From: a virus
Taxonomy: Duplodnaviria; Caudoviricetes
Virus record (IMG/VR): IMGVR_UViG_3300030606_000015
Span: 1 to 46,238 of that record
DNA: 46,238 bases
Strand: one strand, 5' to 3'
Made by a program: the position numbers and the translations under genes. Below are positions 701-46,071 of this stretch, piece by piece (position 1 is the first letter of the stretch; each line of letters starts with the position of its first letter). The notes below the pieces were generated by a model. It was not told the origin of the DNA. It made no database searches and saw only the letters and a list, made by a program, of their open reading frames with translations.

Positions 701-1442
701 AGAAGTCAGTTTTGAGTTTGGCATGACACAGAATTTGGGTGATTACACCAACGCACGGCCGTCGGTCAAGCTGGTGGCGGAACTCACCGAGGATGACTAT
801 CTCGAACAGGCCCTGGCCGATCTGCAAAATATCGCACGCACGGCCGTTCACAACCTGGTCGATGATGAGCTGGAAGCAGCCGGCCGCACGGTCAAGTATT
901 ACCGTGGCGAACTCCACGAGGTCTATCACTCGGACATCCGCCAGTGCATTGTCATTGTACGCAGCGGCACCAAGCCGCCGCAGGAAAAGAACTGGAAACA
1001 CAGCGACCATTGGGGTAACTATATCCACAACGGCGATTTCCCCACTCGCATGCGGCCGCATACGGCGCGCCGGGCTGCCAGTGCCGAACAGCAAACAAGC
1101 GGCTGGCCAATATTCGATTGCACCGATGATGACTTCGGCATCCTTCCCCCACTACCAGACGCCGGTCCTGAGCCGGTCTGGTACCAAAGGGGCCTACGGC
1201 CGTATCTCAACAACGCGCGTATCGACGAGGCGCATTGGGAGGAGCTGGCCGTGCTGGAACACGTGACCGAGGAATATCTCGAAAAAGTGTACCGGGAAAA
1301 AGTCGGCTACGGCCGCAACTCGTTGCGCGGCGAGGAGCTGCTGGCCTTCATCCGTGAGAATCGGCCGTTTGAGGTGGAGCCGGAGCCAGAAGAAGACGAT
1401 TACGACGATGACTACGATGAGGATGACGACGACGAATTCTAA
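690..1442 (+). CDS. Hypothetical protein with very acidic C-terminal tail
   Basis: AAAAGGAG RBS; 250 aa ending EEDDYDDDYDEDDDDEF. Confidence 0.75.
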   Translation: MQIKEVSFEFGMTQNLGDYTNARPSVKLVAELTEDDYLEQALADLQNIARTAVHNLVDDELEAAGRTVKYYRGELHEVYHSDIRQCIVIVRSGTKPPQEKNWKHSDHWGNYIHNGDFPTRMRPHTARRAASAEQQTSGWPIFDCTDDDFGILPPLPDAGPEPVWYQRGLRPYLNNARIDEAHWEELAVLEHVTEEYLEKVYREKVGYGRNSLRGEELLAFIRENRPFEVEPEPEEDDYDDDYDEDDDDEF

Positions 1443-1497
1443 ACCGTCGCCGGCTGGACAGACGTTCGCGCGCGCGAACTCGGTAAAAGGAGCAACC

Positions 1498-1704
1498 ATG
1501 AAAACAACACAAGCTGCCGGCAATCTCTACGAAGTAGACGAAGCGGCCGTGAAACGCCTCAACGCTTTCATGGCCACCGCGCCGCGCCGCTTACGGCCGT
1601 TGCTCAGCGACGAAAAAATGACGGTGGTGGGCGATGGCAGCGGTCGTAAGAAGCGGCCGCAAAGGAAGAAGCAAGATGCACACAGCAACCAGCCCGTTTC
1701 CTAA
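1498..1704 (+). CDS. Small basic hypothetical protein
   Basis: AAAAGGAGCAACC-ATG; MKTTQAAGNLYEVDEAAVKRL…. Confidence 0.6.
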   Translation: MKTTQAAGNLYEVDEAAVKRLNAFMATAPRRLRPLLSDEKMTVVGDGSGRKKRPQRKKQDAHSNQPVS

Positions 1705-1865
1705 CAGCACCGCTGCCGCGCCGCGCGACCTGCGCGGCAGCAGCCCGGCCCTGGCCGGTGCCGGTAAATTTTACGAAGTCAAGCCCGAGGCGGCCGCCCG
1801 CCTGCGCCAGCACTGGCAGCAGCAGGCCACGGCCGCTGCTGAGAAAGAAGGAGCAACAAACATGA
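1676..1865 (+). CDS. Small hypothetical protein resembling 1498..1704; apparent frameshift near 1820-1830 fuses it to the next gene
   Basis: Shared GxxYEV…AA.RL motif; the +1 frame ends RPLLRKKEQQT* with an ATGA overlap at 1862-1865. Confidence 0.4.
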
Positions 1866-2546
1866 AACCGAAAAATAAAATCCTAAACGAGCTGCAAGCG
1901 CGCAGCCAGAACGGGCAAACGGCCCCCGCCGTCGCGGGGGTACCTGCCACCAGTCGCAAGGTCACGAAACTGGCCATCGACCCGGCCGAAACCTACCCGG
2001 CCAGCGCCATCGAGGCCGTCAGAAATGAGGCAGCCAAAGACGGCCGTCGTAATCTGCGCAACATCCTGACCGATGACGTGCTGGCCATCTGGCACGCGTG
2101 GAACAACAGCGGCAAAACGATGAACTGGATTGCCGAACACAACGGCCTGCTAGAGCTGAACGGCTCGCAGGTGGGCATATATTTACGCAAATACCGCGAG
2201 GGGTTGAGAGCGGCAGCACCGCCGACGCCAATGCCCCCCCCCAGTGCCCATCGAGGAGCCGGAGCCCACACCACCGGCACGGCCGCAAACGGCCGTTTCC
2301 CAACCCGATCCGGAACCAGCCCCCGAGCCGCTGCCCAAACCGGAGGTCGAAGCGCTGCAAACGGCCGTCGATCCCTTCGCGGTGGATAAGCCGGAAAACC
2401 TGCCAACCTTTTTTGACCGCGATTACCGGCCGCAGCGCCCCGGCCCCGGCGATGCGCTAGCAGCGCTGGCCTCGTTGGTGAATAGCGAGCAAATCAAAGT
2501 GCGCGGCAGCGTCGAGATGAATTTACGGATTGAGTTCGGAGACTGA
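1862..2546 (+). pseudogene. HTH-like protein with Pro/Glu linker, split by a frameshift in a C9 run (2234-2242)
   Basis: RBS and ATG at 1862; ORFs 1634..2389 and 2244..2546 join in frame if the run is C8 or C11. Confidence 0.6.
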
Positions 2547-2550
2547 TGGC

Positions 2551-43504: not shown

Positions 43505-43748
43505 GAATGAGGCTTGGCGTAGCAATATTTACTGTGTAAGCTCCCGAGCCAGGGGTCACCTTCTGAACAAGGAAGGTTCCCAGCTCGTTACCTGCCTCTT
43601 GGGTTTTTGTTATGGCTTCTAATTCGGTCTGGTAGACACCGATGACCTCGAAGTTTTTCAGAACAATCACTTTGCCATTATATTCTCTGACATAAGCCGA
43701 TTGGTTCTCTAGGTAGTGGTGGAACTGATCCCTTAATGTCTCGTGCAT
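43497..43748 (-). CDS. DUF5678-like small protein (partner of the aspartyl protease)
   Basis: [32 protein letters not shown]…[17 protein letters not shown]; overlaps the protease start. Confidence 0.7.
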
Positions 43749-43826
43749 AGTTTCTCCCCAAAGATCACATTTTCTTAACAATATGATATGCGATTCTCGA
43801 CACAAACTCAAGCGGACGGCCGTTTT

Positions 43827-45488
43827 CTAATCAAACAGCCGCTGCTGCTGGGGCCCTTCTTCCTTCACCCGTTGGGCCTGCTTGAAAGTCATCCCTGTGG
43901 GCGGCATTTGCGGCGCTACCCCCTTCAGCAGCTCGTCAATCGTAAGTATCTGGATTTTGGGGAAACGCTGGTTCCAGCCAGGCGATTCGTAAAATCCAGC
44001 GGAAACGGCCTCGGTGGTCATGTCGCGGGTTGGGGCCTCCAGAGTAAGAAAGAAGCCCATTGCGGCCGATTCCCGTTTCACGGTGCCCACCAGATCGCGG
44101 ATGTCGCGGCTGCTCACCTTGCCGCTCTTCACCTGGACCAGAATCCGTTTAGGCTTGCCGGTCGCATCGTCGATGAAGGTGACGACACCATCGATGCCGC
44201 GGTCTGCACCCTTCTTGCCCTGCTTGCTGCCCTGCTCGCCGCCGGACGGCCGGGCCTTAACCAGTGACAGCGCCCACCACTCGAACTGAAAGCGGTCATC
44301 CTGGGCCAGCTGCCTGGCCGACTGGAGCGATTGCGGCTCGCCCACGATCTGGAATTGGGCATCGGGAAACATTTGCTGAAGGCGGTACTTCATCAGGGCA
44401 ATGGACAGATGGGTGATGTCAATGCCAATCCAGCGCCGGTTTAGCTTCTGCGCGGCCGCCACGGTGGTGCCGCAGCCACAGAAGGGATCGAGGATGACGT
44501 CGCCGGGGTTGGAGCTGGCTTTGATGATTCGTTCAAGAAGCTCAAGGGGTTTTTGCGTAGGGTAGCCGAGCCGTTCGGTTGCTTGTGAGTTGATAGGGGA
44601 TATGTCCAGCCATAAGTTATCAACAATGCGCCCAGACATCTCGCTCAGGTACCTCTTTAGTTGGATTCTCTTGCTCTTACTGTCTGGGTACCAAATTCTC
44701 CCGTCTTCGTCCAGTTTTTGCATTGTTTCTTTGGAGTAACGCCATCCCTTTGGGGGTGACTCATGGCCTTTCCAACTATACATCAGGTTCGGCCTGGGAT
44801 TCGGGCTTGTCATATTGTCCAATCTGTATGGGCCGCGCCCGTCGTCATCATTGTGGCGATACTTTGTGGCGACATACTCAACATCGTGGGCGGTGTGTTG
44901 AGGGTTCCAGGTAGAACTATTGGTTTTTGAGTAGAAGAGGATTGTGTCTGTAACCGGAGACCATCTTCTGGCGTCGCTGTGCGTTGTTGTCCGCTTCCAA
45001 ACAATCTCGTTAATAAATTGTTCGGGCCCAAAAATCGAGTCCAAAATAATCTTCAAGTAATGACTGGCCGTCGGGTCGCAATGTAGGTAGAGGCTGCCGG
45101 TGGGTTTCAGTACGCGGTGCAGCTCTACCAGCCGGGCCGCCATCATAACCAGGTAGGCAAGCATCTGGCTGGGGCCAATGAACTGCCGTAGGGCGGCGAT
45201 CATCTGGCTCACCCGGTCCGGAGCGGCCGTTACCAGGCTGTGGTAGGTCTCTTCGGCCGATGCATTCCAATGCCAGGTGTCGTCGAAAGCGGTAATCTGG
45301 GCCTCGGATTCTGCGCCGCTTTCGTACTTAAACAGCACGTTGTAGGTGCGCTGGGAGTTGAACGGCGGATCCAGGTAGATGAGATCGACGGATTCGCCCG
45401 GGATGTATTCACGAAGAATTTCCAGGTTATCACCGTAGAAAAGGGTGTTTAGATCAAGCGGTGATTTTGCCATCTGCTCTGTCTCCAT
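43827..45488 (-). CDS. N4/N6 DNA methyltransferase fused to an Mrr-like PD-(D/E)XK endonuclease domain
   Basis: [34 protein letters not shown]-terminal DRGIDG…VQVKSG. Confidence 0.9.
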
Positions 45489-45516
45489 TGGCCAATGGTA
45501 AAACGGCCGTTACAAA

Positions 45517-46071
45517 TCAACAACTCGCCTGCACCCCGCCGCCGCCATAGCTGCATGAATCCACCAGCGTGCCCCCGTTGCGCAGGAAGGCCGTATCGCC
45601 GGTGTTGGTCCACACGGCCAGGGCCTGGCCCCAATACAGGTTGCTGGCGTTGCTGGCCCCGCCTTTCGTCCAGACCAGCACGGCCGCACCTGGGGCCAGG
45701 CTGAAGCTGGGGAAGGTGTAGACACGGCCGTCGTTGTCGCTTAACGTCCAGCCGGTCATGACGGCCGCTGTGCCGCCTTTGTTCTCGATGCGGACGTATT
45801 CACCGGCGACGTCGTCACCGGCGGGGTTGTAGACAATGAGGGTGATTTGCACGTTGGCCGGGGGTGTTGTGGCAGTGGGGGCGACGGTGGCTGTTGGCGT
45901 GGCGGTGGGCAATGCGGGCTTGAGGACCAGCGGCAAATAGTTGAACACATCGGGTGTGACGTCGCCGGCAACGGCCGTTTGCGGAGTGGGGTTGGATGAA
46001 ATGGTGAGAATAAATACTGACACAAGCCCTAAGGTGAAGGCGGTGGCAATTCCTGACTTTTTGATCTGCAT
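45517..46071 (-). CDS. Secreted lamin-tail-domain (LTD) protein
   Basis: Signal peptide, NYLPLVLK, PTATPT linker, EYVRIEN…MTGWTLSD…YTFP…VWTNTGD; CAGGAGG RBS. Confidence 0.85.
   Translation of the reverse strand: MQIKKSGIATAFTLGLVSVFILTISSNPTPQTAVAGDVTPDVFNYLPLVLKPALPTATPTATVAPTATTPPANVQITLIVYNPAGDDVAGEYVRIENKGGTAAVMTGWTLSDNDGRVYTFPSFSLAPGAAVLVWTKGGASNASNLYWGQALAVWTNTGDTAFLRNGGTLVDSCSYGGGGVQASC

Follow-up and report, generated by a model that had tools for sequence, protein, structure and literature searches.

A highly iterated palindrome shared by a tailed phage and one order of Chloroflexota

The octamer in the phage genome

The window analyzed here, the whole 46,238-base stretch of IMG/VR record IMGVR_UViG_3300030606_000015, is a tailed phage with genes for a terminase, a capsid, a tape measure, a ParM-like protein and two methyltransferases. 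Its most conspicuous feature is the perfect 8-letter palindrome ACGGCCGT, found in 106 exact copies from position 755 to 45971-45978, a density of 2,292 per Mb or one per 436 bases in DNA of 58.6% GC. The initial annotation of this sequence had estimated about 105 copies, or one per 440 bp, against a zero-order expectation of 1-2, and our counts bear this out: Markov models predict 1.25 (order 0), 2.8 (order 2) or 9.1 (order 3). The hexameric core CGGCCG occurs 286 times and CGATCG only 2 times. Both flanks are right at 106 of the cores (37%), and one flank is right at 99 more. The many seven-of-eight matches reported in the annotation are concentrated at the ends of the word, with 7-38 occurrences of each variant at the first or last base and 0-2 of each at the six inner bases. 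Next to the copies there is frequently an A before (49/106) or a T after (53/106).

The frame distribution and the codon-based null models were computed on 59 coding sequences picked by hand. These hold 83 of the 106 copies, divided 36/36/11 among the three frames, and the other 23 lie outside that gene set, in keeping with the earlier statement that copies fall in all frames and between genes and do not follow from a peptide motif. When the proteins were kept fixed and synonymous codons were resampled (200 runs), 9.2 coding copies were expected, with a maximum of 17; codon shuffling gave 1.9, with a maximum of 6. The enrichment thus survives the codon-preserving null that the annotation had proposed as a check, and an artefact of composition, codon choice or peptide preference was discarded.

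The word is dense enough to have altered the phage proteins. The tripeptide TAV is present 36 times, as compared with 7.2 in shuffled proteins, and ACGGCCGT encodes all 36. The tripeptides [NDYH]GR total 44 rather than 9.2, with NGR alone at 20 rather than 2.2. Several small proteins (8203-8867, 9731-10006 and 40137-40412) have ETAV or QTAV at or near the end, so that their termini absorb the word.

Genes and blocks of the phage

The features of the window to which we refer below are as follows.

3392..3859, plus strand: open reading frame of 155 amino acids, an example of a rewritten protein; five ACGGCCGT copies, four of them read as TAV
5976..7195, plus strand: ParM/actin-like partition protein, followed downstream by a small partner; 5 copies
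12689..15064, minus strand: 791-amino-acid protein with 5 copies; its counterpart in the saturated phage contig L001 is 77% identical
16608..18628, minus strand: motif-poor block of lower GC, pectate-lyase-like gene and neighboring gene; 1 copy, 1 core
28987..35546, minus strand: head module, capsid to portal; matches G095:C24:35946-42224 at 70-85% nucleotide identity
35572..37254, minus strand: terminase large subunit; one copy, read as DGR, in a variable loop
37852..39126, minus strand: ParB-methyltransferase fusion of a common phage type; 6 copies
42944..45488, minus strand: motif-poor cassette of an aspartyl-protease/SEC-C gene, a small gene and an N6/N4 methyltransferase-Mrr fusion; 0 copies inside the methyltransferase gene
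43816..45984, no strand assigned: block common to G095:C7 at 79% identity; the aligned segment begins on the 43816 copy and runs to 6 bases beyond the 45971 copy

The ParM-like gene and its partner suggest a long plasmid-like or prophage residence; no integrase was found among the window proteins. Contig L001, itself saturated with ACGGCCGT, has two genes in common with the window, at 73-77% identity, and its relative of the 791-amino-acid protein keeps a [YDN]GR tripeptide at four of the five ACGGCCGT sites. Two blocks of lower GC are nearly devoid of the word. The one at 16608-18628 (1 copy, GC 0.50) is likely a recent arrival. The other, 42944-45488, has 1 copy, which is intergenic; within it, the aspartyl-protease/SEC-C gene with its small upstream gene (42944-43811) has a GC of 0.47 and zero CGGCCG, and has the appearance of a recent acquisition. 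The 43816 and 45503 copies directly flank the methyltransferase-Mrr gene. Neither of the two phage methyltransferases was retained as a writer of ACGGCCGT, one being the common ParB fusion and the other lying in the motif-free cassette.

The ends of the G095:C7 match fall at copies of the word, and a match of window positions 45502-45969 to G100:C703 (82%) likewise starts on, or one base before, one copy and ends within 6 bases of another. These ends are possibly recombination junctions at sites, as far as alignments can indicate; local alignments tend to stop on shared words, and hence are weak evidence for junctions.

Distribution among phages and host genomes

Scans of viral contigs with single proteins (terminase, capsid) returned nothing, and an alignment scan supplied the terminase relatives used here. 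Because none of the 76 terminase-related viral loci has more than 0.5 ACGGCCGT copies per kb, the word is not a trait of the phage family. A scan for three close copies found 19 viral loci, among them four saturated contigs (1.7-3.7 per kb), and 125 genome loci, the latter from 6 of the 64 parts of the genome collection. All 21 genome loci that reach 8 kb and carry 1 copy per kb or more are labeled as Chloroflexota (Ardenticatenaceae, Candidatus Promineifilaceae, Candidatus Leptovillus affinis and others). Whole-genome counts gave 10,077-15,492 copies in four of five genomes checked, and in the sampled host loci there were 1,108 copies where 12.4 were expected.

The word was then tallied in 167 genomes, designated below by G numbers, of the order that contains Candidatus Leptovillus affinis (G001) and Candidatus Leptofilum, which we take to be Promineifilales. 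The order tallies take in one unpublished genome, G150, on which no claim depends. There are at least 1,000 ACGGCCGT per Mb in 66 of the 167 genomes, with a maximum of 2,177. In 157 other genomes of the class, for which the core rather than the octamer was counted, the ratio of CGGCCG to GCCGGC does not exceed about 2.4. Four Anaerolineae outside the order (G360, G402, G441 and G449) have GCCGGC at 4,700-8,300 per Mb, 3.4-4.8 times the level of CGGCCG, and possibly have further iterated words.

ACGGCCGT is therefore a genome-wide word of one Chloroflexota order, and this order likely includes the host of the phage. Relatives of the terminase are present in 4 of the 167 genomes, and G095, which has the related head module, carries 1,672 ACGGCCGT per Mb and groups with Candidatus Leptofilum in two protein trees. 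A Chloroflexota host had been proposed in the annotation, as had a phage rewritten under a process of that host; the host-order distribution agrees with both proposals, and the excess of TAV and [NDYH]GR and the terminase relatives without the word agree with the second. A phage-specific signal was rejected on the same terminase relatives and on the 10,000-15,000 copies in genomes of the host order.

Alternative words and site conservation

Genomes of the order that are poor in ACGGCCGT mostly carry another word, clade by clade. In samples of 13-20 kb we found TCGGCCGA in G014, G015, G017 and G087, GCGGCCGC in G138 and G139, CCGGCCGG in G059, and the bare CGGCCG in G032 and the G153-G161 group. 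Six genomes, counted in full, have TGCCGGCA at 930-1,800 per Mb. Each of the four palindromic outer pairs around CGGCCG is in use in one clade or another. On an RpoB tree of 40 genomes the words are clade traits, word-free groups occur too, and the word has changed at least four times within the order. G086 (L263, L336, L401) favors one-sided A or T flanks (AA, TT, AT) on CGGCCG, a possible transition state between words.

The sites are conserved well beyond controls, which were 8-mers matched by GC only. In host alignments at 86-99.5% identity, 179 of 198 sites are shared, as compared with 59.5% for the controls, with gaps at 2; at 70-86% identity, 263 of 310 are shared, as compared with 30%, with gaps at 4. 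The phage terminase site is likewise ungapped in 74 of 77 aligned relatives. To the question raised in the annotation, whether the sites arise by substitution or by insertion, the answer is substitution: ACGGCCGT has spread in this way even at the cost of amino-acid changes.

A strand-polar footprint at the sites

On either strand, the DNA 3' of the site is C-rich and G-poor, and the DNA 5' of it is G-rich. Over the 1,108 host sites the GC skew 3' of ACGGCCGT is -0.30 at 3-12 bases, followed by -0.18, -0.08 and approximately -0.03 out to 200 bases. The same polarity is found at four-fold degenerate codon positions, for which we used our own gene calls: at 3-12 bases from 925 sites, G is 0.625 and C 0.141 on the 5' side, and C is 0.62 and G 0.167 on the 3' side. 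At these positions the skew declines within about 50 bases, and a residual tail extends to 200-500. A and T are barely polarized, and deamination was dropped as a cause on that ground.

A footprint of the same sign is seen at TCGGCCGA, GCGGCCGC and TGCCGGCA in their clades; it is weaker at CCGGCCGG, and in the bare-core clade it is -0.055. Eight control palindromes are flat, without skew. Cores with both outer bases wrong, or in word-free groups, have next to no footprint, and the 7-mer ACGGCCG has a weak effect, on the 3' side only. The footprint thus needs the whole octamer and not the CGGCCG core. Since it is absent at cores with wrong flanks, the whole octamer appears to be read and acted on in one direction per strand.

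The phage shows a weak footprint (z -3.4 at 3-12 bases and nothing farther out than 24), and fewer of its cores are complete than in the hosts (106/286, 37%, vs 1,108/1,622, 68%). For these two reasons the phage DNA appears to be partway through the process. How a pure G/C polarity could arise is a matter for speculation, one source being heteroduplex tracts with unequal repair of C:C and G:G mismatches. Repair of these two mismatches is asymmetric. In pneumococcus, C-G transversions are reported to escape mismatch repair (PMC3375284).

Methyltransferases and the nurA operon

Nested methylation of GGCC/CGGCCG, as in cyanobacteria, had been suggested in the annotation and was not upheld: the footprint is tied to the octamer rather than the core, and C5 (cytosine-5) methyltransferases are patchy, occurring in 62 of the 167 order genomes and missing from six of the densest (G001, G004, G006, G009, G010, G012). 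A conserved C5 enzyme was rejected as the writer on these counts. The C5 enzymes of G154, G155 and G160 are presumably Dcm-like, to judge by their motif. Published methylome data for the order were not found in the sources consulted (PMC6329791, PMC8919816, PMC12772301).

A different candidate is an orphan amino-methyltransferase of 660 amino acids and alpha-type arrangement, with motif I near the start and DPPY late, which belongs to PF01555 and bears a distant likeness to DUF1156. At E 1e-30 it is found in 138 of the 167 genomes, 60 of the 66 dense ones and 0 of 6 TGCCGGCA genomes. A distinct enzyme of 450-470 amino acids with an SPPY motif is present in 6/6 TGCCGGCA genomes and 0/13 others searched. 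To the extent that sequence comparison can tell, this suggests that a swap of methyltransferase accompanies the change of word to TGCCGGCA, and the two enzymes are candidate writers. The bare-core clade, where the footprint is weak, has neither.

Both enzymes turn up in the same place, a slot in an operon of the order DUF84-[slot]-nurA-HAS-herA; G001, for example, has DUF84-methylase-nurA-HAS-herA. Of the 118 genomes in which both could be placed, 21 have the 660-amino-acid enzyme no more than 5 kb from nurA. In G026 and G077 the SPPY enzyme is part of the nurA operon, in G076 it lies at a distance of 8 kb, and beta-type methyltransferases are at the operon in six further genomes. A frameshifted C5 methyltransferase (L253:1198-2166) adjoins the 660-amino-acid enzyme and nurA in G017, and another is near nurA in G031 (G031:C169). 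The 218-amino-acid operon gene has a predicted N-terminal fold like the HAS barrel of HerA (predicted local distance difference test, pLDDT, 88). The single-copy operon keeps its position next to DUF84 from genome to genome. No restriction enzyme came to notice in it, and no systematic search for restriction genes was made. In G099, G101, G082 and G083 (L387, L388, L389, L390) nurA-HAS-herA is divergent, with a NurA 37-41% identical to that of G001 and grouping apart from its relatives; the operon there is an in-place replacement, and ACGGCCGT has been kept.

Comparison with cyanobacterial HIP1 and other systems

Cyanobacteria carry the highly iterated palindrome HIP1 (GCGATCGC) and alternate highly iterated palindromes, or HIPs (Elhai 2015, PMC4390886; Xu, Lawrence, Durand 2018, PMC5861425; Rodriguez-Cruz 2026, PMC13756078). 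Taken broadly, ACGGCCGT is such an element. HIPs are GC-rich palindromes at about 500-2,500 per Mb, 15-300 times a second-order Markov expectation, and the octamer falls within these limits (106 vs 2.8 in the phage). It occupies every frame as well as intergenic DNA, its sites are conserved from genome to genome and have multiplied by substitution, its one-off variants cluster at the two end bases, different words take its place in sister lineages, and there is a candidate orphan methyltransferase. The HIP1-like behavior claimed in the annotation fits on all these points. One-off sites pile up at the outer bases of HIP1 as well (PMC4390886, section 2.6), and HIP1 sites are described as conserved beyond controls, with a 10-90 kb periodicity (PMC5861425). 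At chromosomal HIP1 sites we found a flank skew of the same sign (z -5.7), in a small sample of 105 sites from 31 loci chosen around nurA.

The two differ in phylum and word, the core here being CGGCCG, with CGATCG nearly absent from the window. There is no conserved C5 enzyme of DmtC type in the Chloroflexota order; the candidate is instead an alpha-type amino-methyltransferase, often in the nurA-HAS-herA operon. Unlike HIP1, ACGGCCGT saturates phages to host level. A polar footprint or a link to NurA was not found in the HIP1 literature searched, as far as it was accessible, and the main text of one recent account does not name NurA, HerA or phage (PMC13756078). Searches of the mostly open-access literature for ACGGCCGT, its methylation, HIPs in Chloroflexota, HIP1 with phages and HIP1 with NurA yielded no description. 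The feature is a HIP of a new variety, in a second phylum, and is not HIP1.

Among 151 genomes of the cyanobacterial phylum, sampled without control for kinship, NurA was found in 34 of 34 with more than 650 HIP1 per Mb and in 56 of 69 with more than 150. The Chi-like effect of HIP1 is reported to persist after deletion of addAB, and an undefined nuclease/helicase has been proposed (Kamoku and Nielsen, 10.1101/2024.09.10.611283).

Other iterated words differ too. Chi, the signal of RecBCD and AddAB, is an over-represented octamer proposed to set the end of the recombining strand, and is non-palindromic, unmethylated and strand-oriented; ACGGCCGT, a perfect palindrome and far denser, does not qualify as a Chi. 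The DNA uptake sequences (DUS) of Neisseria and uptake signal sequences (USS) of Haemophilus have phased AT-rich flanks and enriched inner near-matches. The RAATTY of Campylobacter is another such signal (as cited in 10.1101/2024.09.10.611283). ACGGCCGT is like all of these in being a short word that saturates the genome, alters proteins and has lineage dialects. It differs from DUS and USS in having neither AT-rich phased flanks nor enriched inner near-matches, in its polar G/C footprint and in its host-level density in phage.

There is a likeness in gene content to the transjugation module of Thermus thermophilus (Tth111II-NurA-TdtA-methylase), where NurA, a HerA-family ATPase and an N4/N6 methylase form one operon with a restrictase; the operon is described as needed for DNA donation, and its recognition sites have been proposed as many origins of transfer (Blesa 2017, PMC5365140). 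The Thermus module is on an excising element with a restriction enzyme, whereas the Chloroflexota operon is single-copy beside DUF84 with a stand-alone HAS-barrel gene, and the parts of that account available describe no hyper-abundant word.

A candidate mechanism and its alternatives

The reading we prefer, to which we would give a little less than an even chance, is a host process of methyl-guided, site-anchored nicking or resection and recombination with drive, with NurA-HerA as the candidate motor. The orphan alpha-type amino-methyltransferase, a candidate writer by its motifs, would mark the octamer. A host machine would read the whole octamer, probably in its methylated form. The marked site would be cut or used as an entry point, and a strand would be resected and exchanged in a fixed direction, with NurA-HerA and the stand-alone HAS-barrel protein as the putative motor; resection and nicking by NurA-HerA have been described (PMC9960219). 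Site-bearing alleles would be preferentially fixed in DNA that stays long in the cell, including that of a phage, and the footprint would mark tracts of processed DNA anchored at the site. The phage would gain nothing specific and would be a long-term resident partway through the process. The copies that bracket the phage methyltransferase-Mrr gene (43816/45503) and the G095:C7 match that ends at copies fit such a mechanism, weakly. Of the mechanisms listed in the annotation (mutational drive, uptake or recombination signal, nucleoid-protein site), the polar footprint fits site-anchored strand processing better than a nucleoid site.

Several observations weigh against our reading. It does not account for the choice of the word's outer bases. 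NurA occurs in 148 of the 167 order genomes whatever their word, so that its presence failed to separate word-bearing from word-free genomes, and its tree largely follows the species tree, so that an expected tracking of the word failed too. The 660-amino-acid enzyme is missing from the bare-core clade and from six dense genomes in our search, occurs in members of the order without any word (G048-G060), and has 14 full-length copies of its type among the 157 genomes outside the order, without core enrichment. Its target, and even DNA as its substrate, is predicted from motifs and PF01555, and its predicted model gave no fold match in the PDB at E 0.001. For 97 of the 118 genomes it was not mapped so near to nurA (5 kb), many contigs being short, and the slot next to that gene may simply be a hot spot for insertions. 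The SPPY enzyme has an internal stop in one copy and is split across contigs in another, and the TGCCGGCA genomes are one clade, so that the swap counts once on the tree. Pairwise host comparisons showed divergence near sites to be neither lower nor shifted to C-G changes. In cyanobacteria, three plasmids lack the footprint (194 sites), no NurA match was obtained for 13 of the 69 genomes with more than 150 HIP1 per Mb, NurA is also present in 20 of 82 below that level, and a crude motif test of the 1.5 kb flanks found no methyltransferase beside 30 nurA genes.

Three other processes could produce an iterated word. In a DNA uptake or transfer signal, the methylated word would be recognized as DNA enters or leaves the cell, and round after round of transformation by DNA that carries it would raise its number. 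The density near 2 per kb, the rewriting of proteins and the conservation of sites fit such a drive, clade-specific words would serve as dialects, methylated HIP1 raises transformation independent of its position (10.1101/2024.09.10.611283), and HIP1 tracks pilus genes (PMC13756078). However, a 40-base profile shows no phased AT-rich flank, inner one-offs are not enriched, a strand-polar skew that trails off over hundreds of bases is not expected from uptake by itself, and a phage at host density enters mainly by injection; we consider this explanation unlikely. We think it rather improbable that the word results from the methyl-directed mismatch-repair ratchet of Elhai, in which hemimethylated sites steer repair to the new strand and site-creating mutations are kept until saturation. 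The outer-base one-offs resemble those of HIP1 (PMC4390886), CGGCCG and GCCGGC both hold GC steps, and the methyltransferase swap fits; the footprint would be a one-sided excision tract, with a polarity that fits excision from a nick, and NurA could be the missing MutH analogue. The G-methylC rule, however, does not explain the A..T, T..A or C..G outer bases of sister clades, the six very dense genomes have no C5 enzymes, and the flanks are not better protected from change.

A binding site of a chromosome-organizing protein, kept by selection and with the flank skew as a DNA shape preference, would account for conservation far above control words, like that of HIP1 with its periodicity (PMC5861425), and for the strongest skew lying within 24 bases. 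Selection on nucleoid structure hardly explains why a 46-kb phage has reached host density and had its proteins rewritten, the skew has a tail to 200-500 bases, and the word has changed repeatedly in the order, which makes this a poor prospect. An artefact of composition, codons or peptides, or a signal specific to the phage, could appeal to the 59% GC and the frequent TAV and NGR in proteins, but it is practically negated by the 83 coding copies where 9 are expected with proteins fixed, by the three frames and intergenic copies, and by the terminase relatives and host genomes described above.

It is conceivable, but doubtful, that one system underlies HIPs in both Chloroflexota and cyanobacteria, an orphan methyltransferase marking the word and NurA-HerA-HAS resecting or exporting DNA directionally. 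If so, the shared system would be a methyl-guided, palindromic counterpart of Chi/RecBCD; a swapped methyltransferase or reader would rewrite genome, proteins and resident phages with a new word, and the G-before/C-after footprint would be a fossil of the tracts. HIP1 has been without a mechanism for thirty years, and a second phylum with at least five words is a natural experiment, with word-free clades, a methyltransferase swap and phages caught partway. NurA-HerA and the polar footprint provide named candidates that are testable in transformable cyanobacteria. The DNA-level process at work is strong enough to overwrite phage protein sequence. In practice, ACGGCCGT serves to assign phage contigs to their host order and to pick out genes newly gained by these filamentous sludge bacteria.

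Other features of the phage

No close named phage was found, the best tblastn matches being Streptomyces phages at 25%. A comparison of clustered regularly interspaced short palindromic repeat (CRISPR) spacers in 150 genomes with window positions 26239-46238, covering 2 candidates per genome, revealed no recognizable match. The phage contig may be incomplete, since no terminal repeat was seen in the window. The phage encodes a short HerA/DUF87-like ATPase (8822-9697), without a NurA match. At the right end, 45517-46071 encodes a secreted-looking lamin-tail-domain protein with close relatives in the host-order genomes G095 and G100.

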